Source: Candidatus Coatesbacteria bacterium (GTDB lineage Bacteria; RBG-13-66-14; B26-G2; WVWN01). Taken from it: a stretch of DNA of 54,709 bases. Shown here piece after piece: positions 1-51,858 of the stretch. The translations under genes and the position numbers were made by a program. How positions within the stretch are numbered: position 1 is the stretch's first letter; each line of letters begins with the position of its first letter. A model generated the notes under the pieces. It was not told where the DNA came from and searched no databases. It saw only the letters and a program-made list of their open reading frames with translations. The stretch is from NCBI GenBank assembly GCA_020356085.1, contig CP070633.1:1336863-1391571 (forward strand). Reading direction: 5' to 3'.

Positions 1-957
1 GCCATTCGCGAGGTCGTCGCCCGCGCCCACCGCTACACGCCGGTGGTCGAGATAACCTCCATCGACGAGCTGGCCCTCGACGTCACGACGACGTTCCCGC
101 GCTGGGGGACGCCGCGCGACTGCGCCGCCGCCTTCGCCGGCGAGGTCCGGGAGGAGCTGGGGCTGCCGTGCTCGCTGGGCGTGGCGCCCAACAAGATGCT
201 CGCCAAGCTGGCCGCCGGCCTGGAGAAGCCCAACGGCCTGACGGTCCTGCGCCCCTCCCAGCTGGAGGCTTTCCTGGAGGAACTGCCGACCACGGAGCTG
301 CCGGGCATCGGCGACAAGATGGGCGAGCATCTGCGGCGGCTGGGCGCGCGGACCTGCGGCGAGCTCGGCCGGCTGTCGCTCTCGCGCCTCAAGTCGCGCT
401 TCGGCGTCATCGGCGAAGTATTACAAAACATGGGCCGGGGAATCGACCGCCGGCCGCTCACGACCCACTACGACTACGAGGAGGCCAAGTCGGTCGGCAA
501 CACCATCACGCTCAACCGCGACCTCTACGACGCCGCGGAGCTGCGGCGGACGTTCCTGTGGCTGAGCGAGCGGGTGGGGCGGCGGCTGCGGGGGCAGGGG
601 TACTGCGGCCGCTGCCTCCACGCGGTGGCGCGCTACCCCGACTTCTACACCGTCGGCAAGTCCCACCGGCTGCGGCGGTACGTCGACGAGGGGCGGGACA
701 TCTTCGAGGCGGCGTGGCCGCTGCTCCCTCCCGACATGGGCGAGCGCGGCGTGCGGATGCTGGGGGTCTCGGTCTCCATGCTGCTGTACCACTGCAAGCC
801 GGCCAGCCTCTTCGAGATCCGGCGGGACCGCCTCACCTCCACCATCGACCGGTTGAACCGGAAGTACGGCCGGGAGGCGCTGAGGCGGGCGGAGCTGCTG
901 CCGGGCCTCCCCGGCGGCTACTCGGAGACCGTCCAGGCGGGTTGGCACCCGGGGTAA
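1..957 (+). CDS. dinB: DNA polymerase IV (Y-family, DinB), C-terminal part; 5' end lies outside the window
   Basis: Frame 1 is open from base 1 (AIREVVARAHRYTPVVEITSIDE...) to TAA at 955-957. DinB-like motifs are present: SLGVAPNKMLAKLA, ELPGIGDK (HhH), KSVGNTITL. The ORF-track start at 43 is internal. Confidence 0.85.
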   Translation, partial: AIREVVARAHRYTPVVEITSIDELALDVTTTFPRWGTPRDCAAAFAGEVREELGLPCSLGVAPNKMLAKLAAGLEKPNGLTVLRPSQLEAFLEELPTTELPGIGDKMGEHLRRLGARTCGELGRLSLSRLKSRFGVIGEVLQNMGRGIDRRPLTTHYDYEEAKSVGNTITLNRDLYDAAELRRTFLWLSERVGRRLRGQGYCGRCLHAVARYPDFYTVGKSHRLRRYVDEGRDIFEAAWPLLPPDMGERGVRMLGVSVSMLLYHCKPASLFEIRRDRLTSTIDRLNRKYGREALRRAELLPGLPGGYSETVQAGWHPG

Positions 958-970
958 ACCGTTCGGCTAT

Positions 971-1000
971 AAAAAAGCCGGGCCCCGCGGCCCGGCTTTT
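971..1000. terminator. Bidirectional intrinsic terminator between dinB (+) and the first small secreted-protein gene (-)
   Basis: A6 run, 8-bp GC stem GCCGGGCC (977-984) / GGCCCGGC (989-996) with a 4-nt loop, then a T4 run. Confidence 0.6.
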
Positions 1001-1022
1001 CCTTTCCTTATCGGATTTCGGC

Positions 1023-1589
1023 TCAGTAGTATAGCGCTTTCACGCGGCCCAGCGAGGTGGGCTCGACGGCCGTCTCGCACTCGCGAACGTGGAGGTTGTC
1101 CACGTACAGCCACACCGTTGCGATCGTCGACGCCGCGCCGGTGACCTTAAACTCTAGATTATAGTTGTCCCCCCTCCGGTACGGCCCGAGCGTTACTTTG
1201 AGCTTGGTCCAACTCCACGGCGCCGTCAATTCTGTTTTCCAGAGTTCGTTCGTTCCTCGCCGGAGCGTTACGGTACGCTTCCCTTCGCCGTCGCCCTGGA
1301 GGCCCGCTATGTAATGCAGCCGCAGCGTGATCTGCCCGGAGGTTTTTAGAGCGAAGTTGCGCGTAACGAGGCTGGCCCACGAGGTCCCCCGCTCCACGAC
1401 CAGGTTGCCGCGCGCGTAGTGGTTATTGGTGCCGGCGCCCCGCGTCCAGGCTGTCTCTTTCCCTTCCGTATGCCACCCCGGCGGCGGGAAATCGGCACGT
1501 TCGAAGTCTTCCCACAGGCGGGGCTCGACCCCCCGGACGCCGGCCGCCACCCCGAGCGTCGCCAACGCCAACGTTAGTACCTTCCTCAT
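1023..1589 (-). CDS. Small secreted protein, choice-of-anchor-J / cleaved-adhesin-like N-terminal motif, with family C-terminal tail VEPTSLGRVKALYY
   Basis: ATG at 1589 preceded by AAGGAGGGG. Signal peptide MRKVLTLALATLGVAAGVRG. Motif LWEDFERADFPPPGW. C-terminal tail shared with the two upstream genes. Confidence 0.7.
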   Translation of the reverse strand: MRKVLTLALATLGVAAGVRGVEPRLWEDFERADFPPPGWHTEGKETAWTRGAGTNNHYARGNLVVERGTSWASLVTRNFALKTSGQITLRLHYIAGLQGDGEGKRTVTLRRGTNELWKTELTAPWSWTKLKVTLGPYRRGDNYNLEFKVTGAASTIATVWLYVDNLHVRECETAVEPTSLGRVKALYY

Positions 1590-1686
1590 TGTGCACCCCT
1601 CCTTAGATATTTAAATCGACCGGCTTTCTGTAACGTGATTACCCGGTCCCGCGGCCCGGCTTTTTTATACGCGCAATAATCTCGGC

Positions 1687-2319
1687 TCAGCGATACAGCG
1701 TCCGCACCCGCCCCAGCGACGTCGGCTCGACGCCGCTGTCGTCGTACGTGAGGCGGAAGCGGCAAATCACCGTGAAGAGCTGGCCGGACTCGCCGCCGTA
1801 CTGTTTGGTAATCCAGCCCCAGTTCTTCCCGGCGTTCCAGCCCCAGGTGTCGCAGGCCGTCTCCACCGTGCCGTTGTTCCAGCGCGGCTCGATCAGGAGG
1901 TTGTCGCTGTTATTATAGTTGAAGGGGGTCGTGAGGTCGAAGCCGAACCACTCGTCCGGTCGGCCGGTGAGGAGGAGCGGGTTGGCGGAATGCACCAGTA
2001 CCGGCGTGTTGCCGCCGTAGTTCGTATTCAAGTTGGTCGTAAGCTCGGCAACCGAGGTGTGGCAGAACCGTAATTCGAACTGGCGGAAGGGAGCGTTGGC
2101 GAAAGTGCCGGCCGCCTGCCATTCGAGCTTGGTAATCGGCGCCTCGAAGTTTAGGCCGCTCTGCGGTACCAAGAACTGGTACCGATAGGAAATCCCTCAG
2201 GTCCCGCAGAACGGGAGTTTGACGGGTTGCTCCTTGGAGCCGGTCTCGACCTGGCCTGCGAACGCCGCGGCCGCCACCACTAGGCCGAGCGCCGTAACGA
2301 TCGCAAACGTCCTAAGCAT
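1687..2319 (-). CDS. Small secreted protein with family tail GVEPTSLGRVRTLYR, interrupted by an in-frame TGA at 2197-2199 (candidate selenocysteine codon, or a pseudogene)
   Basis: SD GGGAGG (2327-2332) lies 7 nt from ATG 2319. Forty codons give a signal peptide (MLRTFAIVTALGLVVAAAAFAGQVE...LPFCGT), then TGA, which is in frame (120 nt from the ATG) with the 161-codon ORF 1687..2172 from the track. Confidence 0.5.
2164..2184 (-). other. Perfect hairpin 12 nt 3' of the in-frame UGA (SECIS-like candidate)
   Basis: mRNA sense reads CGGUACCA-GUUCU-UGGUACCG: an 8-bp stem and a 5-nt loop starting with GU. It sits inside the coding sequence. Confidence 0.3.
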
Positions 2320-2346
2320 CTTCGTGCCTCCCGGAAGGTTACGCCG

Positions 2347-2940
2347 CTAGCGGTATAGCGCTTTAACGCGGCCAAGCGAGGTCGGCCCGACGGCGGGGAA
2401 ACGCCGCTCGACAACAACGACGTCGACGCTGGCGTTGATAAGGCCGCCCGGGCCGCTAGGGTTGGAGGAGGTCTTGAGTACCCACGCGAAGTAATAATCG
2501 TCGCGCGTGGCGGGTACCTCCGCCGTGGGGCCTCGGTAAGTTACCCAGGAGGCGTACGGCGGCAGAGCGGCCTCCCAGCAGGTGAGGTTCGGCGCATAGA
2601 GACCTACTATACGCGAGTAGTTTATCGGCGCGCCGCTCGTTACGCCTTTGTAGCGGAACGTAATAAATAATTGTTGACCCGATTCCAGGGAAAAGGTCTT
2701 ACTTCTTAGTTCCGACTCCGAGGAGGTGCCGTAGGCGGCGAAAGCGAAGCCGTAGGCGAAATGGTTCAATCCCTCGGTCTCGCGCGTCCAATCCCAAGCG
2801 CCCGTGCCAAGTTTTTGCCACCCGGGAGGCGGGAACGCCGTGCCCTCGAACCTCTCCTCCCACAGTTTCTCGCCGGAGGCTCCGGCTAAGAGGGGGAGGA
2901 GTACGGCCGCGGCCGTCGCGGTTAAGCTAAAACGTTTCAC
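2347..2940 (-). CDS. Small secreted protein, choice-of-anchor-J-like N-terminal motif, family tail VGPTSLGRVKALYR
   Basis: GTG at 2940 preceded by AAAGGAGG. Signal peptide MKRFSLTATAAAVLLPLLAGASG. Motif LWEERFEGTAFPPPGW. Conserved tail. Confidence 0.7.
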   Translation of the reverse strand: MKRFSLTATAAAVLLPLLAGASGEKLWEERFEGTAFPPPGWQKLGTGAWDWTRETEGLNHFAYGFAFAAYGTSSESELRSKTFSLESGQQLFITFRYKGVTSGAPINYSRIVGLYAPNLTCWEAALPPYASWVTYRGPTAEVPATRDDYYFAWVLKTSSNPSGPGGLINASVDVVVVERRFPAVGPTSLGRVKALYR

Positions 2941-2963
2941 GGTATCGCCTCCTTTCGTAATTT

Positions 2964-2991
2964 ATTATAACACCCCACGGCGTTTTGTCAA
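2964..2991 (-). promoter_or_regulatory. Near-consensus sigma70-type promoter for the small secreted-protein genes
   Basis: Minus strand reads TTGACA (2991-2986), a 16-nt spacer, then TATAAT (2969-2964). It is followed by AAAGGAGG and the GTG start at 2940. Confidence 0.6.
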
Positions 2992-3015
2992 ACAGTACAT
3001 GACCCTAAACCTAGG

Positions 3016-4278
3016 TTATTTTATGTGCCTGAGCTTTCGAAACCGCCACGCCACGAGCCCGGCCCAGAGCAGCGAGCCCGAGGCGCCTATAAAGAGTGCT
3101 GCCTGGGCGTCGACGTAGCGCGCGACGTATCCCGCCTGCAGCGCGCCGAGGCGCATCGCGCCCATGAAGACCAGGAAATATATGCTCATGATGCGGCCGC
3201 GCAGCCAGTCCGGTACGTTGAGCTGGATTAGCGTGTTGGCCAGCGAGTTCTGCATAACGAAGCAGAATCCCGAGGCCGCCATAATGGCCGCCGCCAGCCA
3301 GAACGTGCGTACGAACGTGAACGATAGGACGACGAGCGCGAACGCGACGTTAGCCAGCGTTAATAACAACCCGCGCGGGCTCCGGCGTCCGAGGCTGGCG
3401 ACCGTCAACGCGCCGACGAGCGCGCCCCCGCCGATGAAAGTCATCAAGTACCCGTAGACGTCGGCGTCGCCGCCGAACACCTCTTTGGTGAACACGGGCA
3501 AAAGAATCGCGTAGGGCATGACGAAGAACGCCGAGACGCCGACGAGCGAGATGATTACCCAAACGAGCGGATTGCGACCCGCGTAGCGGAAGCCGCGCGC
3601 GATCTGGCGGTGGGGCGGGCTTTTCGGTTCGCGCCGGACCGAAGAAGTCCGCATAAGGAGTAACGCGCCTATTACCGGCAAGAAAGTCGCGGCGTTGACC
3701 GTGAACGCCAACCCCTCCCCTACGGTAACGACCAGCAGGCCGGCGACGGCCGGCCCCGCCGTCCGCGCCACGTTGAATATGGTCGAATTGAGGGCAATCG
3801 CATTCGTCAGGTCTTCCTTGCCGACCAACTCCACGACGAAAGATTGCCGCGCCGGGACGTCCAGGGCATGGGCGCTCCCCATAATAAACGCCAGAAGGAT
3901 GACGTGCCATACTTGTACGAGGTCGGTGAGCGTGAGTACCGCCAGGACCGCGGCCTGGACAAACATCGTCGCCTGCGCGAGGAGGACGAGGCGGCGTTTG
4001 TCGAAGCGGTCGGCGAGCGAGCCCGCCCACAAACCTATCGGCAGCGCGGGGACGACCGCCACGAAGTTGACGATCCCCAGCATAGCCGCCGAACCCGTCA
4101 GGCGGTAGACGAGCCAGTTTTGCGCGACGAGTTGGACCCACGTTCCGGAGAGCGAGACCATCTGGCCGAACCACCACAGCCGGTAATCGCGGTGGCGGAG
4201 CGCCCGGAAAGTGCGCGGCAGCGGGACGCGCCTGCGGAGTTGTTCCTGTAGACGGTTGTTAGTGTTTTCGGAGGCCAC
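3016..4278 (-). CDS. MFS transporter (MFS_3 / EntS-like family)
   Basis: FRALRHRDYRLWWFGQMVSLSGTWVQLVAQNWLVYRLTGSA is typical of this family. About 12 predicted hydrophobic helices. Confidence 0.8.
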   Translation of the reverse strand: MASENTNNRLQEQLRRRVPLPRTFRALRHRDYRLWWFGQMVSLSGTWVQLVAQNWLVYRLTGSAAMLGIVNFVAVVPALPIGLWAGSLADRFDKRRLVLLAQATMFVQAAVLAVLTLTDLVQVWHVILLAFIMGSAHALDVPARQSFVVELVGKEDLTNAIALNSTIFNVARTAGPAVAGLLVVTVGEGLAFTVNAATFLPVIGALLLMRTSSVRREPKSPPHRQIARGFRYAGRNPLVWVIISLVGVSAFFVMPYAILLPVFTKEVFGGDADVYGYLMTFIGGGALVGALTVASLGRRSPRGLLLTLANVAFALVVLSFTFVRTFWLAAAIMAASGFCFVMQNSLANTLIQLNVPDWLRGRIMSIYFLVFMGAMRLGALQAGYVARYVDAQAALFIGASGSLLWAGLVAWRFRKLRHIK

Positions 4279-4280
4279 GG

Positions 4281-5444
4281 TTAATCGTTACCCGGCGTAG
4301 GGGTTTTGCGGAGGAAACCGTAAATTAAGATTCCCGCCGCGGCGAGGGCCGCGGTGGCCGCGCCGAACGTGAACGTGCCGGCGCCTTGCCACCGATCCCA
4401 GATCAAGCCCGCGACGACGGACCCCGGCAATACGGCCAGGCCGCTGGCCATATGGAGCAGGCCGAGAGCTGCCCCCCTTCTCTCGGCGGGAACCGCGTTA
4501 GCGACGAACGCCGGCGGCAGCGCCATGAACGCCTGGTAATAGAGGGCGTAGAGGGCGAACAGCGGCCAAACCGTCCACGGCGCGGGGAGGCGTCCCGCGA
4601 CGACGAGCACGGCGGCTTGGAAAAAATAGGCCGCCGCGAGGACCGGCAAAATCCGGAGGCGGTCGGCGAGCCACCCGATCGGGACTGGCCAGATGACCTG
4701 CGCCACCGTGAAGGTCAAATATACCAGCGGGATCGTCGTCAGCGGTAGGCCCAGTTCGTTCGCGCGGAGGATATAAAACGCGTACGATAGCATCCCGAAG
4801 GAGTAGACGGTGTGGCACACGAGGAACGGCCACCACGGCTTGACCGCCGCCCGGTCGAATATCCTGGGCGGCGCCTCGCGCGGCGTGCGTTTCGGCTGCC
4901 GGACTAATAGGATTATTACGAGGGCGACGGCCACGCCGGGGACGATCGTCCACTTGAATATCCCCCGCGTCGTTAAGTCGGTGTAGTGCAGGAGGGCGTA
5001 CAGGACCAACACGCCCGCGACGGCGCCGGCGGAGTCGAGCGCGCGGTGCAGGCCGAAGGCGCGGCCGCGCTGCCGTTCCGTAACGTACCCGGCCAGCAGG
5101 GCGTCGCGGGGCGAACGCCGTACGCCTTTGCCGACGCGGTCGGATACGCGCAGCGCCAGGACGGCGGGGCCGCCGTAGGCGAACGCCATCAACGGCTTGC
5201 TGAGGACCGATAGGCCGTACCCGGCCAGCATCAGCCACTTGTGCCGGCCCGCGCGGTCGGCGACGTATCCGGAAAGGTACTTTAACGTCGCCGCCACGGC
5301 GTCGGCCGCGCCCTCCACCAGGCCCAAGAAAACGGCGGAGAGGCCCAGCTCTTGCGTTATGAACAGGGGGAGGAGGGGGAATATTATTTCCGATTGCAGG
5401 TCGGCGAAGAACGAAACGAGGCCGAGCGCGAGTACGTTAAGCAT
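4281..5444 (-). CDS. MFS transporter
   Basis: Hydrophobic 387-aa protein with the MFS-like motif GYVADRAGRHKWL between TM2 and TM3. Separated by 2 nt from the downstream MFS gene. Confidence 0.75.
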   Translation of the reverse strand: MLNVLALGLVSFFADLQSEIIFPLLPLFITQELGLSAVFLGLVEGAADAVAATLKYLSGYVADRAGRHKWLMLAGYGLSVLSKPLMAFAYGGPAVLALRVSDRVGKGVRRSPRDALLAGYVTERQRGRAFGLHRALDSAGAVAGVLVLYALLHYTDLTTRGIFKWTIVPGVAVALVIILLVRQPKRTPREAPPRIFDRAAVKPWWPFLVCHTVYSFGMLSYAFYILRANELGLPLTTIPLVYLTFTVAQVIWPVPIGWLADRLRILPVLAAAYFFQAAVLVVAGRLPAPWTVWPLFALYALYYQAFMALPPAFVANAVPAERRGAALGLLHMASGLAVLPGSVVAGLIWDRWQGAGTFTFGAATAALAAAGILIYGFLRKTPTPGND

Positions 5445-5493
5445 ATCCTCCCATATTACTCGAACCGGGCGGTCGCCGCAAGGGCATTATTCC

Positions 5494-5522
5494 TTGCGGG
5501 TCGGCGGGAGCGCATTTATAAT
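5494..5522 (+). promoter_or_regulatory. Promoter-like element giving a very short leader for the polyferredoxin gene
   Basis: TTGCGG (5494-5499), 17-nt spacer, TATAAT (5517-5522). Only 11 nt separate it from ATG 5534 and there is no SD in between. Confidence 0.4.
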
Positions 5523-5533
5523 GTTCGCTAGCG

Positions 5534-6853
5534 ATGGAGGCGAACCCCGCTCGGACCCGGCGGAGGTGGCTTCGCCGGTTGATATTTATCGCGGTCGTTG
5601 GTGCGACGTTGACGGCCTCCCATTTCTGGGGCCGGCACGTCGACCCGCCACCCCGTTGGCTCGACGCCGACCGCGTCGCGGTACTGACCGGCGCCTCCGA
5701 ACTCCCGGAGCAGGTGGGCGGCAACGCCGGGTATTGGCGGATTAAACGGGGCGAGGAGACGCTGTACGCCGCGGAGAGCGCGGCGCTCGCCGCCGACGTC
5801 CAAGGGTACGGCGGCCCGTTCGACCTCTTGATCGTCGTCGACGAGGCCGGCGATTTCGACCGCCTCCTTATGGTCCGGCACAACGAGACGCCCTCGTACG
5901 TGACGGGCGCGCCGGCGTTTTTGGCCTCGTTCGTCGGCCTGTCCCCGACGGCCCCGCTCGAACCCGGTACGGACGTCGACGCCCTCACCCGCGCGACCGT
6001 GACGAGCGAGGCGTTTGCCGCTGCCGCCCGCCTTACGGGCCGTAAGATCCTCCGCGCGGCGCTGGGCCGGGAGGTAGAGCTGGAGGAGGAGCGCGAGCCG
6101 TGGGATTGGCCGTGGGCCGCCGTCGCGGCCGCGTTTTTCGGCGTCGCGGTATGGGCCCGGCGGCGGCCGCCGGAGGTGCTCCGGATCGTCGTGGCCGCGG
6201 CGGCCGTGGGGGTACTGGGCTTCTGGGCGGGGCGGTTTCTCTCGATTGGCGACGTCGGCCGCCTCGTGATGGCGAAATTCCCGCCCTTCGGCCCGCGGCT
6301 GTCGCTGTACGTACTCTTCGGCGGCGCGACGGTTATTGCCTTGGTTTTCGGAAACGTTTATTGCGGGTGGGTGTGCCCGTTCGGCGCCGTAGCCGAATTG
6401 CTGCATAAGGTACCGTTCCGCAAATTAACCGTCGCGCCGGCGTTCGCCCGCAAACTCAGTAACTTACGGTTTATCCTGTTAGCGGTCGTCGTCGCGGCGA
6501 TGGTCGCGAGGTGGGACTTGGGCGCCGCCTCCTACGAGCCGTTCGATGACCTCTTTGCGTACGCCGCCGCCGGGTTGTCGCTGCTTTTCCTCGTCGCGGT
6601 CTTGGCGGTCTCGGCGTTTCATTACCGCTTCTTCTGCCGGTACCTGTGCGCGGTGGGGGCTTTGTGGGGGGAGGTCGCGGCGGTAGGGCGGCAGCCGCGG
6701 CTGCCGCCGTGCGAGGATTGTCGCGAGTGCGCGCAGGTGTGTCCCACCGGGGCCGTCGTCGAGAACCGGGAGGTAGTGGACCGGGCGTTGTGTATCGAAT
6801 GCGGCCGCTGCGGCCGAGTGTGTGAGGCGGAGCGGAAGCGCCTCGCGGCGTGA
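5534..6853 (+). CDS. NosR/NapH-like membrane polyferredoxin with an N-terminal FMN-binding domain
   Basis: FMN_bind-like segment (VQGYGGPFDLLIVVD...RHNETPSY). CGWVCPFG and CRYLCAVG membrane Cys motifs. Two ferredoxin-type clusters: CEDCRECAQVCP and CIECGRCGRVCE. Confidence 0.75.
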   Translation: MEANPARTRRRWLRRLIFIAVVGATLTASHFWGRHVDPPPRWLDADRVAVLTGASELPEQVGGNAGYWRIKRGEETLYAAESAALAADVQGYGGPFDLLIVVDEAGDFDRLLMVRHNETPSYVTGAPAFLASFVGLSPTAPLEPGTDVDALTRATVTSEAFAAAARLTGRKILRAALGREVELEEEREPWDWPWAAVAAAFFGVAVWARRRPPEVLRIVVAAAAVGVLGFWAGRFLSIGDVGRLVMAKFPPFGPRLSLYVLFGGATVIALVFGNVYCGWVCPFGAVAELLHKVPFRKLTVAPAFARKLSNLRFILLAVVVAAMVARWDLGAASYEPFDDLFAYAAAGLSLLFLVAVLAVSAFHYRFFCRYLCAVGALWGEVAAVGRQPRLPPCEDCRECAQVCPTGAVVENREVVDRALCIECGRCGRVCEAERKRLAA

Positions 6854-6874
6854 CCGGGGCGCCGGATTTTTAAG

Positions 6875-6903
6875 TTGGTAGCGCGGGCGCGCTATGGTAT
6901 AAA
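6875..6903 (+). promoter_or_regulatory. Promoter-like element upstream of the AsmA-like gene
   Basis: TTGGTA (6875-6880), 17-nt spacer, TATAAA (6898-6903), 21 nt before ATG 6925. Confidence 0.3.
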
Positions 6904-6924
6904 AGGCCGTTTTTTGGCGGCATT

Positions 6925-9216
6925 ATGAAGAAACGGAAATTAATACTGGGCGTAGCCATTTTAACCTTGGTCGCGCTGGCGGTTTTGTACTACGCCGCCG
7001 TCGCCCCGGCCGTCGTCGGGACCGAACGCGTCGCGGAGGCTTTTCGCGCCTCGCTGCGTGAGGGGCCGGGGCTCGAAGCCCGCCACGGAAAAGCGACCTT
7101 CCGGCTCTTACCGCGCCCCGCCGTCGCCCTCGCCGAAGTCGTAGTCGTTAACGGCGTTGGGAAGGAACTCCTCCGCGCGGACGAAGTCCATTTGGGTTTA
7201 TCCTACTTCGGTTTCCTGGCGTTGAGGCCGAGCCTGGCCGCGGTCGAGTTCCGGCGGCCCCGCCTCGACCTGGCGCCCGGCGATATGAGTTTCGGCGAGG
7301 CGGGGAAGGGTAAGCCGTTCCGCGGGACGCTCGGCGTGCGGGAGGGTTTCGTACGCTACGCCGCCGCCCGCCGTACCGTCTTGTTGGACGGCGTGAACGG
7401 GAACGTTCGGTGCCGCGTCGCGTGGGGGGAGGAGCTGGACCTCCGCGGCAAGCTCCAGGCGGAGAAGCTGAACCTGGGCGCGGGGGCGGAGGAGGCCGTG
7501 GGCGGGATGGCTCTCGCGGCGGAGGGGAAGATATCGTACCGCCGGGAGGGGATGGGCGGGCGGTTGACGTTCGAGGAGCTGGATTTCTTGTTCGGCAAGG
7601 CGCGGTTGAGCGTTACGGGGGAACTCCAAACCGGCCCGGGGGAGAAAGATATCGACCTGACGCTGCGGGGCAAAAAAATGGCGGTAAGCCAGGTCCTGCC
7701 GGCGCTGGCGCCGCGTTTCGGCGAGGTGGAGCTGGAGGGCGAGATCGATCTGGCGTTGACGGTAAAAGGCTCCTGGGGGGAGGGGGAGCGGCCGTCCGTC
7801 CGCGGCGAGTTGGAGGTTCGGAAAGGCCGCCTTAAGCCCGACGACGGCGAACCCATAAAGAACGTCGCGGCGACCGTCAGCTTTCAGGGCGAGAAGTACG
7901 TTATAGAGAACTTCCGCGGCGAAACGAAGCGCGGGAGCTTCAAAGGGTACGGGACGGTGCGGCCGGAGGAGGGGTGGCCGTTTGCGCTGAAAATAGAGGG
8001 CGCGCTCCCGCTGGAGGTCGCCGCGGTCCTGCTCGGCCTCCCGGAGCCCTACGAGCTGGCCGGACCCGTGCAGCTCAACGTCGACGTCGACGGCGAGCTG
8101 TCGTCGGCGGGCCGGACCTCCGTCGACGGCACGGTCGAGCTGGTAGATTGCCAGGTGCGGCTCAAGCCGTTCGCCGTGCCGTTCCGCAACCTGAAGGGGA
8201 CGGCGTATTGCGACGGTTATAGAGTGAAGGCCGGGAAAATTAAGGGCACCTTGGTCGACCGGGAGTTCGAGGTGGGCGGGAGTTGGCAGGGCTTCGAAAC
8301 GCCGCGCCTCGACTTCGTCGTCGTCGCCGACGATTTGGATTTGGACGCGGCGTTGCCCAACGAGGAGGTCCGCCGCCGCGAGCAGGAACGGGGGACCGCG
8401 CCGCGCGGTCTCCCCGGAAGGGATTTGACCGTTACCGGGAAGGCCCGCTTTAAAAAATTCCGACTGTTATCCGTCGCCGGAAAAAAGTTGGAGGCCGAGT
8501 TCCAATACGGCGCCGGCATCCTCAACCTTACGAGGCTGGACTTCGACGCTTACGAGGGGAAGGTGCGGGCGCAGATGACGATCCACCCGGGCGCGCGGCC
8601 GAAGTATACGTGTTCGGCGACGATCCGCGACGCCCGGCTGGGCGTGTTCCTCACCGAGAATAAATATCTGGAGAACGTCCTCACCGGCCGGTTCTCCGCC
8701 GACGTTACTTTCTCCGCGGAGGGGACCGCCGCGGAGGAGGTTAAGCGGTCGCTGGGAGGCCGCGGGTCGCTGGAGTGGAAGGGCGGCCGCGCCGCCGAGC
8801 TGCCGTTGCTTACGGAGTTGAAGAAATGGTCGCGGATCGATCTGTACGAGCCGCTGCAGATCTCTAAGTTATGGGTGATGTGCGACGCCCGCGACGGTAC
8901 TATTCGGTCGGCCGACTTCCGCCTGGAGAACGCCGATCTGACTATCGAAGCCGCCGGCGAGGTCGACCTCGAGACGAAGCTTAACGTTACGGTCCATACG
9001 ACCTTCAGCAAGAAGGCGGCGGAACGGCTGGCGCGGGAGGGCCGCGCGCTCGCGCTCGTCCGCGACGAAGACGGCCGCGCCCATTTCAATTTCCTCGTAA
9101 CCGGCGAGGCGGCTAAACCGGCCTTTCAGCTCGACGCCGGATCGATGTTGGGAGCGGCGGGGGAGGCGCCGGGAGGCGAACCGGCGGAAACCGGCGACTT
9201 GGGCGACTTGTTCTAA
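6925..9216 (+). CDS. AsmA-family outer-membrane assembly / lipid-transfer-like protein
   Basis: N-terminal membrane anchor (KLILGVAILTLVALAVLYYAA) followed by a long repetitive beta-rich periplasmic region typical of AsmA/DUF748-like proteins. Confidence 0.6.
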   Translation: MKKRKLILGVAILTLVALAVLYYAAVAPAVVGTERVAEAFRASLREGPGLEARHGKATFRLLPRPAVALAEVVVVNGVGKELLRADEVHLGLSYFGFLALRPSLAAVEFRRPRLDLAPGDMSFGEAGKGKPFRGTLGVREGFVRYAAARRTVLLDGVNGNVRCRVAWGEELDLRGKLQAEKLNLGAGAEEAVGGMALAAEGKISYRREGMGGRLTFEELDFLFGKARLSVTGELQTGPGEKDIDLTLRGKKMAVSQVLPALAPRFGEVELEGEIDLALTVKGSWGEGERPSVRGELEVRKGRLKPDDGEPIKNVAATVSFQGEKYVIENFRGETKRGSFKGYGTVRPEEGWPFALKIEGALPLEVAAVLLGLPEPYELAGPVQLNVDVDGELSSAGRTSVDGTVELVDCQVRLKPFAVPFRNLKGTAYCDGYRVKAGKIKGTLVDREFEVGGSWQGFETPRLDFVVVADDLDLDAALPNEEVRRREQERGTAPRGLPGRDLTVTGKARFKKFRLLSVAGKKLEAEFQYGAGILNLTRLDFDAYEGKVRAQMTIHPGARPKYTCSATIRDARLGVFLTENKYLENVLTGRFSADVTFSAEGTAAEEVKRSLGGRGSLEWKGGRAAELPLLTELKKWSRIDLYEPLQISKLWVMCDARDGTIRSADFRLENADLTIEAAGEVDLETKLNVTVHTTFSKKAAERLAREGRALALVRDEDGRAHFNFLVTGEAAKPAFQLDAGSMLGAAGEAPGGEPAETGDLGDLF

Positions 9217-9240
9217 CCGGCGGCGGGGGAGGTTTTTTCG

Positions 9241-9594
9241 ATGAAGCTGTTAATCTTAGTTTATCACGATCCGTACGACGGCGGCGACGTCGTGTGGAAC
9301 GCGATGCGCGTCGCGGCGTTCCACCAGGAACTCGGCGACGAGGTATTCGTTTTTCTGATGTCGGACGCCGTTACGCTCCCGCACGCCGACACGCCGCAGC
9401 CCGATAACGCCGCCTACGACGTCGACATGGAGTTCGAGGTCGCGGGCGCCGCGGGGGCGGCGTTCAAGACGTGCGGAACGTGCCTCAAGAACCGCGCGCT
9501 CCCGCCCGACCGGTTGGCGGAGTACGCGCCGGCGGCGACGCTCAAGGACCTCGCCGACTGGGTTCACCTCGCCGATAGGATATTGACCTTCTAG
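9241..9594 (+). CDS. DsrE/DsrF-like sulfur-relay family protein
   Basis: 117 aa. MKLLILVYHDPYDG... start and the CGTCLKNR motif, characteristic of DsrE-family proteins. Confidence 0.6.
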   Translation: MKLLILVYHDPYDGGDVVWNAMRVAAFHQELGDEVFVFLMSDAVTLPHADTPQPDNAAYDVDMEFEVAGAAGAAFKTCGTCLKNRALPPDRLAEYAPAATLKDLADWVHLADRILTF

Positions 9595-9620
9595 CTACGG
9601 AAAGGCCGAGGACGACGCCG

Positions 9621-10286
9621 ATGATAAAAATGCGAGGCGTAACCAAGATCTACGACAACGGCGTCGTCGCGCTGCACGACGTCTCCGTCGACGTCGCGAA
9701 GGGCGAGCTCGCGTTTCTGACCGGGCCCTCCGGCGCGGGGAAGTCCACGCTGTTGAAGCTCATCACGGCCGAGGAACCGCCGACGGAGGGGCTGGTCGAG
9801 ATAGCCGGGCACGACGTGGGGGCGCTGCGGCGGCGCGAAGTCCCGTACCTCCGGCGGCGGATCGGCGTCGTCTTCCAGGACTTCCGCCTCCTAAACGAGC
9901 GGACGGTGCTGGAGAACGTGATGCTCCCCCTTACGATCCTGGGGCTCGCCCCCGCCGAACAGCGACGGCGGGCGCTCCAGGTGCTCACGGTCGTAGGTTT
10001 GGCCCAGCGGAAAGACGCGCGGCCGATGGAGCTCTCGGGCGGCGAGCAACAACGCGTCGCCATTGCCCGGGCGATAGCGCTCGACCCCGCGATCCTGCTC
10101 GCGGACGAACCGACCGGCAACCTCGACCCCGACATAACCTGGCACATTATGAAGCTCTTCCGCCTGATTAACGCGCGGGGAACGGCCGTCGTCATCGCAA
10201 CCCACAACTACGACGTGGTCAAAAAAATGGACGCGCGCGTGATAAAGATAATTAGGGGCGAGCTCCCGGAGGAGGCGGTCGCGTGA
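9621..10286 (+). CDS. ftsE: Cell-division ABC transporter ATP-binding protein FtsE
   Basis: Walker A GPSGAGKST, signature LSGGEQQRVAIARA, Walker B ILLADEPTGNLD. Its stop overlaps the FtsX start (GTGA). Confidence 0.9.
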   Translation: MIKMRGVTKIYDNGVVALHDVSVDVAKGELAFLTGPSGAGKSTLLKLITAEEPPTEGLVEIAGHDVGALRRREVPYLRRRIGVVFQDFRLLNERTVLENVMLPLTILGLAPAEQRRRALQVLTVVGLAQRKDARPMELSGGEQQRVAIARAIALDPAILLADEPTGNLDPDITWHIMKLFRLINARGTAVVIATHNYDVVKKMDARVIKIIRGELPEEAVA

Positions 10287-11146
10287 AGCACCTCGGCTTT
10301 TTCGCGCGGGAGGCCCTAAAAAACGTTGGCCGGGGCGGCATCCTGACGGCGGCCGCAATCCTGGCGGTTACGTTCGCGGCGCTCATCGGCGGCATTTTCG
10401 CCACCGCCTACGTCAACCTCCGCACGATTTACGAGGAGTTGCGGAGCGAGCTGTACGTCGACGTCTATTTGGCCTACGAGACGGACGAGGCCCAAGCCCA
10501 GGTAATCGGCGACCATCTCGGGCGGCTTGCCGGCGTGAGCCGAGCCGACTATATATCGCGGGAGGCGGCGGCCGAAGAGTTCGTCGGCCTGTTCCCGGAA
10601 GATAAAGAGTTGTTGGAGGCGTTGAGCGAGAATCCGCTCCCGGCGTCGTACCGGCTTTACCTCCGGCCCGAATACGATACGCCGGAGGAGGTGGCGGCGA
10701 TTGTCGAACAGGTCGTCGCCGTGGAGGGCGTGGACGACGCGGTTTACGCCCAGGAGTGGCTCGCCAACCTCGAGCGGGCGGCGAAGGTGGTGGGTGTAGT
10801 CGGCGCCGCGGTGGGGGGCGTATTGGGCGCGGCGGCGATCCTGGTCGTAATGAGCACTATAGGCCTCGCGGTGTACGCCCGCCGCGACACGATCGAGGTC
10901 ATGAAGATCGTGGGGGCGACGGACGGTTTCGTGCGGGCGCCGTTCATCGGCGAGGGTTTGATAATCGGCCTCCTCGGCGGCCTGGTCGCGTTGGCGGCGC
11001 TGTACGGCGGCGTCGAGTTCCTGCGAACGTACCACGTAGAGGTCCATTTCCTCCCGGCGTCGTATTGGGCCGGCGGGTTGGCTTTGGCGGGATTGGCGGG
11101 GGCAATCGGCTCGGCCGCGGCCGTGCGCCGTTTCTTGAAGGTCTAA
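10283..11146 (+). CDS. ftsX: Cell-division permease-like protein FtsX
   Basis: FAREALKNVGRGG start motif, a large extracytoplasmic loop, three C-terminal TM helices, and coupling to ftsE. Confidence 0.85.
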   Translation: MKHLGFFAREALKNVGRGGILTAAAILAVTFAALIGGIFATAYVNLRTIYEELRSELYVDVYLAYETDEAQAQVIGDHLGRLAGVSRADYISREAAAEEFVGLFPEDKELLEALSENPLPASYRLYLRPEYDTPEEVAAIVEQVVAVEGVDDAVYAQEWLANLERAAKVVGVVGAAVGGVLGAAAILVVMSTIGLAVYARRDTIEVMKIVGATDGFVRAPFIGEGLIIGLLGGLVALAALYGGVEFLRTYHVEVHFLPASYWAGGLALAGLAGAIGSAAAVRRFLKV

Positions 11147-11174
11147 CCCGTCCCAACGAAATTCGCTACCGGCG

Positions 11175-11198
11175 CGGCCGCAACGGGCGGCCGTTTTT
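11175..11198 (+). terminator. Intrinsic terminator after ftsX
   Basis: CGGCCGC (11175-11181) / GCGGCCG (11187-11193) stem, 5-nt loop, T5 run. Confidence 0.55.
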
Positions 11199-11231
11199 CG
11201 CCCCGTTTTATCGTTGGACGGTAGAACCACG

Positions 11232-13343
11232 ATGAAAAGGGCTAAATTATGGGCGCTGGCGTTCCTTCCCCTCGCCGGCGGCGCCGCGGCCGAGGAGCCG
11301 TGGGTCATACGCGCGAGCCGCGCAGAAGTCCCTCCGGTTATAGACGGCGTGTGGGAGGAGGCGTGGGGCGGCGTGCAGCCGGCGAGGGGGTTCCGCCAAT
11401 ATCGGCCGGCCTTGAACGCCCCGGCCTTCCGGGATACCGAGGTGTACGTGCTGTACGACGAGGAGGCGTTGTACGTCGGGTGGATCTGCTACGAGGACGC
11501 CGCCGACCGCTTGGCGGCCTCCGCGACCGTCCGCGACATGTACATGAACGACGACGACGCCGTAAACGTCATGTTGGACGCCAACAACGACCGCCAATCC
11601 GCGTACGACTTCATCGTCAACTGGCGCGGCGTGCGATACGACGGCGCTTTCGCGAAAGACGGTTCCATCGGCGGCCCGGCGTGGGATGGATTCTGGGAAG
11701 CGGCTACCTCGGTGGGCGAGGGTGCGTGGTACTGCGAGATGGCGATACCATGGTCGACGCTCCGCTACGACCGGAACTCGGGCCATTTCGGGATTCAATT
11801 CCTCCGCTTCCGCCGCGCGGCGTACGAGGATACGTATTGGGCGGGCGACGGCGAGTTTTTAAACCGCGTCTCGACGTTCGGGCGCGTCGAGGGATTCGAG
11901 GGTTTACCGCGGCCGCGGCCGTTTAAACTGACGCCGTACGTTACGGGGCGGGCGGAGGAGAAGTTCGATACGCCAGCGTACGGGTACGAGGCGACCGAGG
12001 GATGGGAGTTCGAGCCGCGGGCCGGCCTCGATTTCGAATACCGCGCCGGGGCGGCGGTGGCGGCGCTCCTGACGGTTCTTCCCGACTACGCCTATATCGA
12101 GGCGGACCCCGCTCAGATCAGTCTTGAGCCGACGGAAATCTACCTGGAGGAGAAGCGGCCGTTTTTCACGGAGGGGTATGAGCTGTTCGATACTTATAGC
12201 GACACCGTTTACACGCGGCGGTTAACGGAAATCGCGGCGGGCGCGAAAGTCGCCGGGCGAGTAGGGCCGGTAAATTATAGCGCGTTGGACGTCGTGTTAA
12301 AGGACGACGATCCGTTGTACCCCCAGGATAATTTCGCCTTTGCGCGCGCGACGTACGATTTTCCCGTGGGCTCCACGTTCGGCGTTATGGGGATCGGCCG
12401 TCAGGAGCGGGGAGGCGAGGTCCCGCTGGAAGAGGGGCCGGGCGACGACCGCGCGCGGTACAACAACGTCGGCTTGGTCGACGGCCGGTTGGTTTTCCCG
12501 GCGGGTATGGCTTTGGGCTTCGAGGGGATAAAGTCGCAAACCGCGGGCGAAGGCGGGGATGGCTACCGGTATACGCTCGGCTTAGGCCGGTACGGCCTGA
12601 CGGAGAACGTCGAAGGGTATTATTTCGAAATCAGCGACGATTTCCGGGCCGATACGGCTTTCCTCCAACCGGAGGACTTCGGCCGGCGGGGGGCGGGGCT
12701 TAGCGCGCTCAAGGAATTTCAAATCAACCGCGGCGGCGTACGGATGATTCGGCCCAGCGTCGGGTACGAACACAATTGGAACGCGGACAGCGAGACGACG
12801 CTTAATTTCGTGTCGCCGGTCCTCCAAGTGACGGCCGAAAACGATCTGTTCGTCACGTTGAACTACCGCGGCGGCCGCGACTTACGGTACGTCCCGTACG
12901 GGTATCCCGATTTCCACAACGACGTCTACGATATAGCTTTCGGCCACCGGCCTGCTTCCTGGGGCCGCTTCCGCTTGGGCTACTGGCGCGGAATGTGGTA
13001 CGCCGACTTCTACCATTATTATACGGCCGAGGGCGACTATATACCGGTCCCGGCCGTGGTTCTGAACGGCAACGCGGAGGTGGGAAACCCGCGCGGCGCC
13101 GACCGCTTCGTAGTCGGCAACGTCAAGGTAACCCATTCGGTGACGGACGACCTGTACTGGCGAATTATCGTCCAGGGCAACTCCGCGGGTCGGACGAGTT
13201 CGGCCAGCCTCCTGTGGGGGTGGGATTTCCTGCCGGGCAGCACGGCGTACCTGGCTTACGAGCAGCGCCGCGATTCGAACGGTCACTTCCTGGTCGCGGA
13301 ACAATTGGCTTTCCTTAAGGTATCTTATATGATAACGTTCTAA
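11232..13343 (+). CDS. DUF5916-type large secreted/outer-membrane protein with CBM9-like N-terminal domain (paralog 1)
   Basis: ATG 11232 (MKRAKLWALAFLPLAGGAAA signal peptide). IDGVWEEAW...EVYVLYDEEALYVGW CBM9-like region. Long beta-rich C-terminal part ending LAFLKVSYMITF. Confidence 0.7.
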   Translation: MKRAKLWALAFLPLAGGAAAEEPWVIRASRAEVPPVIDGVWEEAWGGVQPARGFRQYRPALNAPAFRDTEVYVLYDEEALYVGWICYEDAADRLAASATVRDMYMNDDDAVNVMLDANNDRQSAYDFIVNWRGVRYDGAFAKDGSIGGPAWDGFWEAATSVGEGAWYCEMAIPWSTLRYDRNSGHFGIQFLRFRRAAYEDTYWAGDGEFLNRVSTFGRVEGFEGLPRPRPFKLTPYVTGRAEEKFDTPAYGYEATEGWEFEPRAGLDFEYRAGAAVAALLTVLPDYAYIEADPAQISLEPTEIYLEEKRPFFTEGYELFDTYSDTVYTRRLTEIAAGAKVAGRVGPVNYSALDVVLKDDDPLYPQDNFAFARATYDFPVGSTFGVMGIGRQERGGEVPLEEGPGDDRARYNNVGLVDGRLVFPAGMALGFEGIKSQTAGEGGDGYRYTLGLGRYGLTENVEGYYFEISDDFRADTAFLQPEDFGRRGAGLSALKEFQINRGGVRMIRPSVGYEHNWNADSETTLNFVSPVLQVTAENDLFVTLNYRGGRDLRYVPYGYPDFHNDVYDIAFGHRPASWGRFRLGYWRGMWYADFYHYYTAEGDYIPVPAVVLNGNAEVGNPRGADRFVVGNVKVTHSVTDDLYWRIIVQGNSAGRTSSASLLWGWDFLPGSTAYLAYEQRRDSNGHFLVAEQLAFLKVSYMITF

Positions 13344-13369
13344 CCGGGCTTATCGTTCGGAACCCGACG

Positions 13370-13396
13370 AAAAAGCCCGCGTGAGCGGGTTTTTTC
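13370..13396 (+). terminator. Intrinsic terminator between the two DUF5916 paralogs
   Basis: A-run, GCCCGC (13375-13380) / GCGGGT (13385-13390) stem, GTGA loop, T6 run. Confidence 0.55.
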
Positions 13397-13427
13397 GTTT
13401 AAATATATACGCGAACCGGAGGTTCTT

Positions 13428-15542
13428 ATGAGACGTGTAATTAAGTACGGTGGGGTATGGTTGGCACTGGCGGCCGGCACGTTGGCCGCCGGGGAGGAAG
13501 TATGGTCGCTCGCGGCCGTCCGCGTGGAGCAACCGCCGATCATCGACGGCGTGATGGAGGAGGTGTGGTTCCGCGCGGAACCGGCGCGGCTCGAGCGCCA
13601 ATACCGGCCCGCCCAGGGTGAGCCCGCGCTCGCGGCGACGGAGGTGTACGTTCTCTACGACGACGAGGCGTTGTATTTCGGCTGGGTATGTCACGAGGAC
13701 GATCCCGCGGGTTTGGTAGCCTGCGCTACGGTCCGCGATATGTTCTTAAACGACGACGACGCGATCGACGTCATGCTCGACGCCAACAACGATCTTCAAT
13801 CGGCGTACGATTTCATGGTTAACTGGCGGGGCGTTAAGTACGACGGCACGTTTGCGCAGGATAGTACGGTGGGGGGGCCGGCGTGGGACGGCTACTGGGA
13901 GGCCGCGACGTCGGTGGCGGCGGAGGCGTGGTACTGCGAAATGGCGATCCCGTGGGCGACGCTCCGCTACGACCGCGACGCCTCCTCGCTGGGCGTCCAG
14001 TTCCTCCGGATGCGGAAACCGACGTATGAGGAGACGTTTTGGGCCAGCGACGGGCAACTTCTCAATCGCGTTTCTACGTTCGGGCGCATCGAGGGACTGG
14101 AGAACCTGCCGCGGCCGCGGCCGTTTAAACTGACGCCGTACGTTACGGGCCGGGCGGAGGAGGCGTTCGACACTCCCGCCTACGGCTTCGAGCCGACGGA
14201 GGGGTGGGAATTCAAACCCCGCTACGGCCTGGATTTCGAATATCGCGCCGGCGCCGCGGTGAGCGTTTTGGCGACGGTTCTCCCCGACTACGCTTATATC
14301 GAGGCCGATCCCGCCGAGATTACGATCGAACCGACGGAAATCTGGCTGGAGGAAAAGCGGCCCTTTTTCACGGAGGGGTTCGAGTTTTTCGACAACCACT
14401 TCCTCTACACCCGCCGGTTTACGGAGATCGCCGGCGGCACTAAAGTGACTGGCCGGGCTAGCCGGTTCAATTACGGCGCGTTGGACGTAGTGCTCCTCGG
14501 CGACGACCCGCGGTTCCCGGAGGACAACTTCGCTTTAGTCCGGACGTCGTACGATACTCCGGACGGACACACGTTCGGCGTCACGGGGATGGGCCGGCGA
14601 CAGTTGGGAGGCACGGTCCCGCCGGAGGGTACGTATTACGGGGGCGACCAGGCGCGGTACAACAACGTCGCCGCGGTCGACGGACGGATCATACTGCCGT
14701 GGCGGTTAGCGCTTAAGTTGGAGGGTTACAAGTCCCAAACCGGGGGAGAGGGAGGGGACGGCTACGATTATTTCGCGCACTTCGGACGGCCCGGCGTCAC
14801 GGATAACTGGGGAACGTGGTACTACGAGCTGAGCGAGGACTTCCGCGCCGACATGAGTTTTCTCCAACCCGAAAGTTTGAACTCCCGGGGCGTGGGGTTC
14901 TACGGGCTCCGGGAGGTACAAGTTAACCGCGCCGGCGTGCGCTTCTTGCGGGGCGACCTTTTCTACGAGCATGAATGGAACTTGGACAACGAGACGAAAT
15001 ACAACGTCTTCGTCCCGAACGCCATGGTCGTACTCGAAAACGATTTCTTCGGAGGGGTCACCTATCGCGGCGGCCGGAACGCGAGTTACGTCCCGTACGG
15101 GTACCCCGACTATCATAACGACGTCGTCGAATTCGCCGTCGGCCATCGGCCGGCCTCGTGGGGGCAAGCGCGGCTAGCCTATTGGCAGGGGATGTGGTTC
15201 GGCGACTACTATCACTACTACGCGGGGGAATTCACGGCCATCCCGACGCCGCCGTTGGTGCTGGAGGCGGACGTCGAGTTCGGCAACCCGCGGGGCGGCG
15301 ACCGGTTCGTCGTCGGCAACTTGAAGAGCACCCACAGCCTGAGCGAATACCTCTTCTGGCGCCTTATTCTCCAAGGCAACTCCGCCGACCGGACGAGCTC
15401 GGCGAGCGTGCTCTGGGGATGGGATTTCCGCCCGGGTAGTACGGCCTACCTCGCTTACGAGCAGCGCCGCGATTCGACGGGCCACTTCTTGCTCGCCGAG
15501 CAGGTGGCGTTCCTGAAGGTTTCCTATATGATCGCGTTTTAG
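13428..15542 (+). CDS. DUF5916-type large secreted/outer-membrane protein with CBM9-like N-terminal domain (paralog 2)
   Basis: GGAGG SD before ATG 13428. Collinear with paralog 1 along its full length (about two-thirds identical by eye). Ends VAFLKVSYMIAF. Confidence 0.7.
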   Translation: MRRVIKYGGVWLALAAGTLAAGEEVWSLAAVRVEQPPIIDGVMEEVWFRAEPARLERQYRPAQGEPALAATEVYVLYDDEALYFGWVCHEDDPAGLVACATVRDMFLNDDDAIDVMLDANNDLQSAYDFMVNWRGVKYDGTFAQDSTVGGPAWDGYWEAATSVAAEAWYCEMAIPWATLRYDRDASSLGVQFLRMRKPTYEETFWASDGQLLNRVSTFGRIEGLENLPRPRPFKLTPYVTGRAEEAFDTPAYGFEPTEGWEFKPRYGLDFEYRAGAAVSVLATVLPDYAYIEADPAEITIEPTEIWLEEKRPFFTEGFEFFDNHFLYTRRFTEIAGGTKVTGRASRFNYGALDVVLLGDDPRFPEDNFALVRTSYDTPDGHTFGVTGMGRRQLGGTVPPEGTYYGGDQARYNNVAAVDGRIILPWRLALKLEGYKSQTGGEGGDGYDYFAHFGRPGVTDNWGTWYYELSEDFRADMSFLQPESLNSRGVGFYGLREVQVNRAGVRFLRGDLFYEHEWNLDNETKYNVFVPNAMVVLENDFFGGVTYRGGRNASYVPYGYPDYHNDVVEFAVGHRPASWGQARLAYWQGMWFGDYYHYYAGEFTAIPTPPLVLEADVEFGNPRGGDRFVVGNLKSTHSLSEYLFWRLILQGNSADRTSSASVLWGWDFRPGSTAYLAYEQRRDSTGHFLLAEQVAFLKVSYMIAF

Positions 15543-44914: not shown

Positions 44915-44939
44915 AGCGGGCCGCCGGGCCCGCTTTTTT
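44915..44939 (+). terminator. Intrinsic terminator after the guanylyltransferase gene
   Basis: AGCGGGCC / GGCCCGCT 8-bp stem, 4-nt loop, T6 run. The T-run overlaps the stop codon of the convergent cytochrome gene. Confidence 0.55.
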
Positions 44940-51725: not shown

Positions 51726-51755
51726 TTGACGTGCCGCCCCCTCCGGGTTTATATT
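51726..51755 (+). promoter_or_regulatory. Promoter-like element about 100 nt upstream of the octaheme cytochrome gene
   Basis: TTGACG (51726-51731), 18-nt spacer, TATATT (51750-51755). Confidence 0.45.
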
Positions 51756-51858
51756 GTACATAATTAAATACGTTAACTTCGCCGGCGGTAAGGCCTTCGC
51801 AACTCGGGAGGCAAAACAGGGCGCGGACGGCGGAGGCGCGGCGGCTGGAGGAGGCCCC

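Follow-up and report, generated by a model that had tools for sequence, protein, structure and literature searches.

The window analysed here, a 54,709-nt stretch of a Candidatus Coatesbacteria bacterium contig (CP070633.1, positions 1,336,863 to 1,391,571), carries on its minus strand a complete gene for a small, probably exported protein that contains an in-frame UGA. Comparative sequence analysis makes it very probable that this UGA is decoded as selenocysteine (Sec). Read from the sequence, the single gene spans 2319-1687 (-) and comprises 210 codons plus stop, with the ATG at 2319-2317 and the internal TGA as codon 41 (2197-2199, -); orthologs share the same architecture. A Shine-Dalgarno-like GGGAGG (2327-2332, -) lies 7 nt 5' of the ATG and would presumably act in translation initiation. 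The 40-codon segment preceding the TGA encodes MLRTFAIVTALGLVVAAAAFAGQVETGSKEQPVKLPFCGT, of which residues 1-21 (MLRTFAIVTALGLVVAAAAFA; 2257-2319, -) form a typical predicted signal peptide (AFA|G), with cleavage placed by eye at AFA/GQ and no lipobox. Homolog comparison revealed an equivalent N-terminus in all full-length family members. Cys38 (TGC, 2206-2208, -) is the putative partner of Sec41 in a C-G-T-U motif. The TGA is in frame with 169 further codons, which end in a C-terminal tail, GVEPTSLGRVRTLYR (1690-1734, -), and the stop TGA at 1689-1687. A stem-loop resembling a bacterial selenocysteine insertion sequence (bSECIS) is located at 2164-2184 (-), with the 5' arm at 2184-2177, the loop GUUCU at 2176-2172 and the 3' arm at 2171-2164, and overlaps the codons R-Y-Q-F-L-V-P. 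An initial annotation of this DNA had proposed either a secreted selenoprotein with a CxxU motif or a fresh pseudogene; its coordinates for the GGGAGG, ATG, TGA and hairpin, as well as its signal peptide, match base for base on the minus strand.

A conserved in-frame UGA with a partner cysteine

A protein search with the read-through product yielded 30 relatives, and their DNA was fetched and translated across the TGA site. A further 54 loci were obtained by scanning GTDB species representatives; they derive from ~10 metagenome-assembled genomes (MAGs), named mostly as Candidatus Zixiibacteriota, with one Coatesbacteria and several labelled "uncultured bacterium" (individual loci are denoted by L numbers). 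The close relatives, at 39-83% identity, are annotated as products of ~128-172 aa (mostly ~160 aa), nearly all with a start directly past the TGA position. In these close homologs the sequence 5' of the TGA is conserved and in frame, and is listed by public gene calls as orphan open reading frames (ORFs) of 34-39 aa. Distant relatives are unbroken proteins of ~212 aa with a signal peptide.

At the aligned site, an in-frame TGA was found in 35 genes, derived from the window, from JGI/Logan metagenome contigs and from ~10 MAGs. It is carried at one and the same codon by syntenic orthologs and by many diverged paralogs, with pairwise identity among the TGA genes dropping to about 30-45%. Single genomes contain 3-5 such genes on separate contigs, for example L021, L026, L030, L031 and L044 in JAUWLW01. 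The motifs of the TGA members are PFCG[TSAI]U, PWCG[TS]U, PFCAGU, PF[RYN]GCU and PFRCCU, such that a Cys is present at position -3 (CxxU) or -1 (CU) in 35/35 cases. This partner Cys is missing from the TGA-less members, with the exceptions of L011 and L017. The latter reads PFCAG-C-GTAYRVQVL, with TGT as the codon at the site, while its relatives L005d and L015 read PFCAG-U-GTAYRVQVL and PFCSG-U-GTSYRVQVL. Judged by sequence, L017 and these two relatives are a classical Sec/Cys pair. The secreted CxxU selenoprotein of the initial annotation is thus borne out by a UGA conserved in deep paralogs as well as orthologs, a constant partner Cys and an ortholog with TGT.

These data bear on three alternatives to Sec insertion. 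A sense codon (such as TGG or TGC) could have turned into TGA recently, in a fresh pseudogene or through an assembly or sequencing error: one base change from TGC, TGT or TGG is enough to create a TGA, and the ORF track does show the gene in two pieces. With the same aligned TGA present in 35 genes from independent assemblies and samples, and with both flanks conserved in frame at the protein level, we assign this explanation a negligible probability; the fresh pseudogene offered by the initial annotation is ruled out by the conservation of TGA at that codon. A lineage-wide reassignment of UGA to Trp or Gly (code 4 or 25) also has to be considered, as UGA is reassigned in some uncultured bacterial lineages. 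However, TGA terminates 7 of the 35 well-supported (Pfam-supported) genes in the window, including the target gene itself and a full-length aldehyde dehydrogenase (461/461 profile positions); the three genes previously cited as evidence that TGA is an ordinary stop in this DNA were confirmed in this count. The GC content of the genome is 65%, and the locus L005 contains two family genes that each have an internal and a terminal TGA. Reassignment is therefore extremely improbable. With TGA kept in 35 genes, and with the two L005 genes also TGA-terminated, neither a recent pseudogene or sequencing error nor a reassigned code can explain the family.

The third alternative is that the locus comprises two cistrons, encoding a 40-residue secreted peptide and a separate protein of ~161-170 residues, with the hairpin acting in translational coupling or regulation. 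Gene callers indeed place GTG or TTG starts shortly past the TGA in many members, but this downstream "start" differs in both position and type between them, and amino-acid conservation is unbroken from the first codon past the TGA onwards. A separate downstream product would furthermore be devoid of the signal peptide that all TGA-less homologs have on a continuous chain, and in L017, where the codon is TGT, the gene is one uninterrupted ORF. We consider two cistrons improbable, and return to a single gene with Sec at codon 41.

In a neighbour-joining tree the TGA members all fall into a single clade, within which the TGA was lost twice: through the U to C change in L017, and through a change from C-U to N-A or N-S in L041, L045, L053 and L060. 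In this N-A/N-S subclade both Cys and Sec are replaced, showing that the family tolerates losing both. Across the remaining half of the tree the aligned residue is Ala, Arg or Gly, and Ser also occurs among TGA-less homologs. Among 34 TGA-less genes (6 + 28) for which the motif was read, covering single-domain forms and at least some larger proteins, none (0/34) has a CxxU or CU motif. Because of the Ala, Arg and Gly in the other half of the tree, the Cys-Sec pair is best regarded as a clade-specific gain in a wider domain family and not as an ancestral catalytic residue. The initial annotation had asked whether Cys or UGA occupies the aligned position, and had taken an unrelated residue there as grounds for rejecting a selenoprotein. 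Distant members do have Ala, Arg or Gly, but as a ground for rejection this is too strict, because the pair is a clade-specific gain.

A bSECIS-like hairpin downstream of the UGA

The window hairpin starts 12 nt past the TGA and consists of a perfect 8-bp stem, CGGUACCA-GUUCU-UGGUACCG (2184-2164). The published consensus for bacterial SECIS elements asks for a 3-9 nt loop whose opening two positions contain G, a stem of 4-16 bp, a UGA-to-loop distance of 16-37 nt and an MFE (minimum free energy) of -7.5 kcal/mol or lower (PMC13188914). The window hairpin satisfies 4/4 of these constraints, with a spacing of 20 nt, a 5-nt loop (GUUCU, GU first), 8 bp and -11.6 kcal/mol. In window sequence, the chance expectation of a perfect hairpin of ≥8 bp with a loop in the bSECIS range past a given TGA is ~0.01. 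When compared with shuffles, the whole 81-nt region is no more stable (z = -1.0).

The TGA-plus-hairpin layout is repeated in dozens of diverged homologs. A stem-loop occurs past every TGA, mostly 12 or 15 nt downstream and of the form CGGNNCCA-G[G/U]NNN-UGGNNCUG; the L037, L044 and L048 subfamily has a shifted, bulged hairpin with an earlier start, and in L010 and L018 the hairpin is found in another register. The bSECIS consensus is satisfied by 26/35 TGA members, compared with 1/28 TGA-less homologs. At a common anchor, the mean hairpin MFE is -11.6 kcal/mol for TGA members and -5.6 kcal/mol for TGA-less homologs (Mann-Whitney p = 1e-8). The hairpin overlaps the residues R-x-Q-x-L-V-L, and the TGA-less homologs retain the R-x-Q codons mostly without the hairpin. 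In the Cys ortholog L017 it has decayed (-5.5 kcal/mol, versus -12.2 kcal/mol in its TGA relative L005d), and the hairpins of L041, L045 and L060 are weak (-3.4 to -5.4 kcal/mol), although L053, which has also lost the TGA, still has a strong but different hairpin at the same place (-13.5 kcal/mol).

Covariation was assessed on an ungapped alignment of 32 sequences. Pairing was observed in 86% of cells, a value equalled by 0/500 shuffles, and sliding the partner columns reduced pairing to 57% or less. Columns 7 and 21 pair as AU (12), GC (8), UG (4), UA (3) and CG (1), where column 7 is the first base of codon x and column 21 the synonymous third base of the Val codon. RNAalifold independently found the same helix; it did not find a conserved lower stem enclosing the UGA. 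An outer stem around the UGA in the MFE fold of the window sequence (UCUGCGG/CCGCAGA) is not conserved and was dropped. The covariation, together with decay in most genes where the UGA was lost, supports selection on the hairpin structure. The SECIS-like hairpin noted initially thus fits the bSECIS consensus, covaries and is mostly decayed where the UGA is absent.

Selenocysteine use in the lineage

The retrieved sequence was scanned for TGA codons accompanied by a bSECIS-like hairpin and a nearby Cys. This revealed an unannotated Rdx/SelW-like gene at 20329-20108 (-) of L001, a Zixibacteria MAG contig (JASFLY010000005.1), which had been missed by the gene caller and lies ~10 kb from the ortholog of the target on the same contig. 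Its product (MKLVIRYCGE-U-GFEGRAARL...) matches PF10262 end to end with 56 bits, against a cut-off of 22.6. The TGA is at the canonical CxxU position and is followed by the hairpin GGCUGCCA-GGU-UGGCGGCC, the apex of which, CCA-GGU-UGG, resembles that of the target family. Because a recognised selenoprotein (Rdx) is encoded on the contig of the ortholog, the Zixibacteria lineage can be taken to use Sec. The Rdx-like gene adjoins a radical SAM gene. A generic TGA scan of the window proved uninformative in this sequence of 65% GC.

Several observations weigh against Sec insertion at codon 41. Neither selA, selB, selD nor tRNA-Sec was found within the 54.7-kb window or in ~375 kb of fetched loci: ARAGORN detected no tRNA-Sec in the window and 54 loci, Rfam gave no match in the window, Pfam scans of ~30 window proteins revealed no sel genes, and tblastn with E. 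coli SelD and SelB queries had no match in 430 kb. With respect to the hairpin, 9/35 TGA members fail the simple bSECIS filter, with shifted or bulged stems that the filter does not model. Because the hairpin sits inside the conserved codons R-x-Q-x-L-V-L, its conservation is partly protein-driven, and because all TGA members belong to one clade, the covariation counts are not phylogenetically independent. Finally, a Cys-for-Sec homolog was found in one case only (L017), and the Ala, Arg and Gly of distant homologs are unusual for selenoproteins.

Two of these points, the Sec machinery not being seen in the window or fetched loci and the tolerance of non-Cys residues in distant homologs, would also fit a programmed read-through that is independent of SECIS and selenium, in which the hairpin helps a near-cognate tRNA (Trp, Cys or Arg) to read the UGA. 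In contrast, the partner Cys at -3 or -1 is constant, a Cys ortholog exists, and the hairpin agrees with the SelB-type consensus both in its geometry and in its G[G/U] loop. The lineage moreover has a member of Rdx, a recognised selenoprotein family, with a similar hairpin, and we are not aware of any example in bacteria of UGA read-through driven by a hairpin in this way. Such read-through is accordingly given a low probability. Decoding of the codon-41 UGA as Sec remains by a wide measure the likely outcome, and the gene appears to belong to a hitherto undescribed family of small selenoproteins that are exported and occur in multiple copies in Zixibacteria-type bacteria.

An extracellular beta-sandwich domain

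The target protein has no Pfam or NCBIfam match. The structure of a close TGA-less homolog (P0014) was modelled with AlphaFold2, yielding an all-beta sandwich with a predicted local distance difference test score (pLDDT) of 84.8 and a predicted template-modelling score (pTM) of 0.80. In this model the loop corresponding to that of Sec is ordered, and the tail at the C-terminus is disordered. Foldseek searches with the model gave weak jelly-roll/CBM-like matches (template-modelling (TM) score ≤ 0.44). An oxidoreductase of the thioredoxin-fold or Rdx-type CxxU kind was considered and rejected, on the basis of the all-beta model of the close homolog and of no match to a family hidden Markov model (HMM).

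A profile search of 1.84 billion representatives located the domain in 5,213 of them at E ≤ 1e-3. It commonly occurs in 2-8 tandem copies per protein, often as a triple in proteins of ~570 aa, and is also found within giant surface proteins, the largest of them 6,536 aa long, where domains co-occurring with it include CBM96/DNRLRE, FG-GAP, Ig-like, Kelch and the T9SS-tail. Cys86-His87-Thr88, Asn100-Tyr101 and Glu144 are (nearly) invariant across the family. From its sequence contexts, the beta-sandwich domain is identified as an extracellular module for which Pfam and NCBIfam hold no model. A TGA-less copy of the domain is present on a 109-kb contig labelled as a Thermoplasmata archaeon (L062, JAOAJK010000005.1); its presence there may be due to horizontal transfer or to faulty binning, or may just follow from how widespread the domain is.

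Tail-bearing neighbours and gene order

The C-terminal tail is common to the target and to unrelated secreted neighbours. Its pattern, [AV]xPTSLGRV[KR]xLY[RKQH]-stop, recurs at the end of numerous small secreted proteins whose bodies are unrelated: window copies are located at 1690-1734, 1026-1067 and 2350-2391 (all -), and about 150 further cases occur in L001-L065. The tail-bearing genes form tandem arrays with 3-7 genes per 6 kb. No transmembrane segment and no Pfam or NCBIfam match was found for the tail. It is probably a previously undescribed signal for sorting or anchoring in genomes of the Zixibacteria type. Two neighbouring genes for secreted proteins with the same tail flank the target, at 1023-1589 (-) and 2347-2940 (-). 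According to sequence and profile scans, neither encodes a selenoprotein. The body of the 1023-1589 product weakly resembles choice-of-anchor J (NF038128; 22.3 bits, below the curated cut-off of 30), a family that the target does not match.

Positions 1-15542 of the window are syntenic with the Zixibacteria MAG contigs L001 and L003. The shared order comprises a DinB-like polymerase, the tail-gene array, major facilitator superfamily (MFS) transporters, an FMN_bind/Fer4_5 protein, a YhdP-like protein, FtsE/FtsX and two CBM9/DUF5916 proteins; in L001 a DsrE gene lies between those for YhdP and FtsE. On this shared order, the organism from which the window derives belongs within or close to Ca. 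Zixiibacteriota. Beyond this region, the window encodes a 1,558-aa sensor histidine kinase at 15580-20256 (-), which combines seven GAF domains with PAS, HisKA and HATPase domains, and multihaem c-type cytochromes at 44938-46266 (-) and 51754-53205 (+) (Cytochrome_C554 and Multi-haem_cyto families). The TGA at 51727-51729, in frame and upstream of the second of these cytochrome genes, was tried as another selenoprotein site and rejected: it falls outside the gene, whose true start (MKFISKK, with its signal peptide) lies downstream.

Proposed decoding and function

We propose that translation would begin at ATG 2319 and that the UGA at codon 41 would be read as Sec, with SelB and Sec-tRNA(Sec) recruited by the hairpin 12 nt downstream (8-bp stem, GUUCU). 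The product would be exported through the Sec translocon by virtue of the signal peptide, with cleavage predicted after AFA. The mature protein would then consist of a single beta-sandwich, presenting Cys38-x-x-Sec41 on a loop ~17-20 residues from the new N-terminus. The Cys-Sec pair may serve as a selenylsulfide redox centre or as a soft-metal/chalcogen site outside the cytoplasm, and the tail, PTSLGRV(K/R)xLY(R), is likely to sort or anchor the protein.

Taken further, the family could be an exported and lineage-expanded one, with 3-5 or more paralogs per Zixibacteria genome, in which a Cys-Sec pair was grafted on a surface loop of an adhesin/CBM-like beta-sandwich for extracellular selenium chemistry, for example to capture or reduce soft metals, metalloids, polysulfide or mineral surfaces. 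For its delivery the protein would rely on an undescribed C-terminal sorting tail common to large tandem arrays of secreted proteins. We advance this functional proposal tentatively and place its chance slightly under even.

For annotation, the consequence is that each member is broken up in public databases into a short piece with the signal peptide and a "hypothetical protein" that lacks its N-terminus, so that a complete family of exported proteins is mis-annotated in Zixibacteria and their relatives; a model built on the motif and the hairpin would mend this. The bacterial selenoproteome would gain an extracytoplasmic, multi-paralog family that does not have a thioredoxin fold. Because most TGA-less homologs do not have Cys at the site, selenoprotein finders based on Cys/Sec homology could overlook families of this type. 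The clade also represents a natural experiment, with a single gain of UGA plus SECIS followed by two losses, mostly accompanied by decay of the hairpin.

Comparison with known systems

The layout resembles the E. coli fdhF/bSECISearch model, in which an in-frame UGA is followed by a stem-loop in the coding region. The UGA-to-loop spacing of the family is 20-24 nt (allowed 16-37), the loop is small with G followed by G or U, the upper stem has 8-12 bp, and the MFE is ≤ -7.5 kcal/mol. The family hairpin differs in that its sequence is unrelated to the fdhF SECIS and that it has no conserved lower stem around the UGA; SelB binding is putative.

SelW-like/Rdx proteins (PF10262) and other CxxU redox selenoproteins share with the target a CxxU motif near the N-terminus, and the Rdx-like member encoded ~10 kb from the ortholog has a similar apical hairpin. 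In contrast to Rdx, the target is an exported protein that is predicted to be an all-beta sandwich, with no Rdx/thioredoxin-like fold and no Pfam match. Selenoproteins with a CU dipeptide, among them the MerB-like SaoL family, were described by Haft and Gwadz, and CU dipeptides in other new selenoproteins have been tied to metal chemistry (bioRxiv 10.1101/2022.07.06.499078). Half of the target family likewise uses Cys-Sec (PFRGCU, PFYGCU); database entries break off at that Cys, and metal binding would be a plausible role. The two groups differ, however, in fold, neighbourhood and taxa, and the Sec of the target family is near the N-terminus.

The bacterial selenoproteins that reviews give as extracytoplasmic comprise DsbA/DsbG-like proteins, the MtrB/PioB family, a TonB-dependent receptor and the multihaem MccSep. 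The target is similarly a predicted exported selenoprotein but, unlike these named families, it is a small, single-domain protein, belongs to a domain family that has no model and occurs as several paralogs per genome. The literature searched contained no report of a Zixibacteria selenoprotein or of the target family, which is absent from the review lists, and homologs named in the source databases are "hypothetical protein" only. The family may coincide with an unnamed, "hypothetical" selenoprotein family known from metagenomes.

The beta-sandwich module of large surface proteins is the same domain as that of the target. It differs in that none of the motif-read TGA-less genes (0/34) has a CxxU or CU motif and only 1 passes the bSECIS filter, with the large repeat proteins lying outside that set. 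Against this background, the decoding mechanism appears to be the known bacterial one, acting on a protein family that appears to be new.

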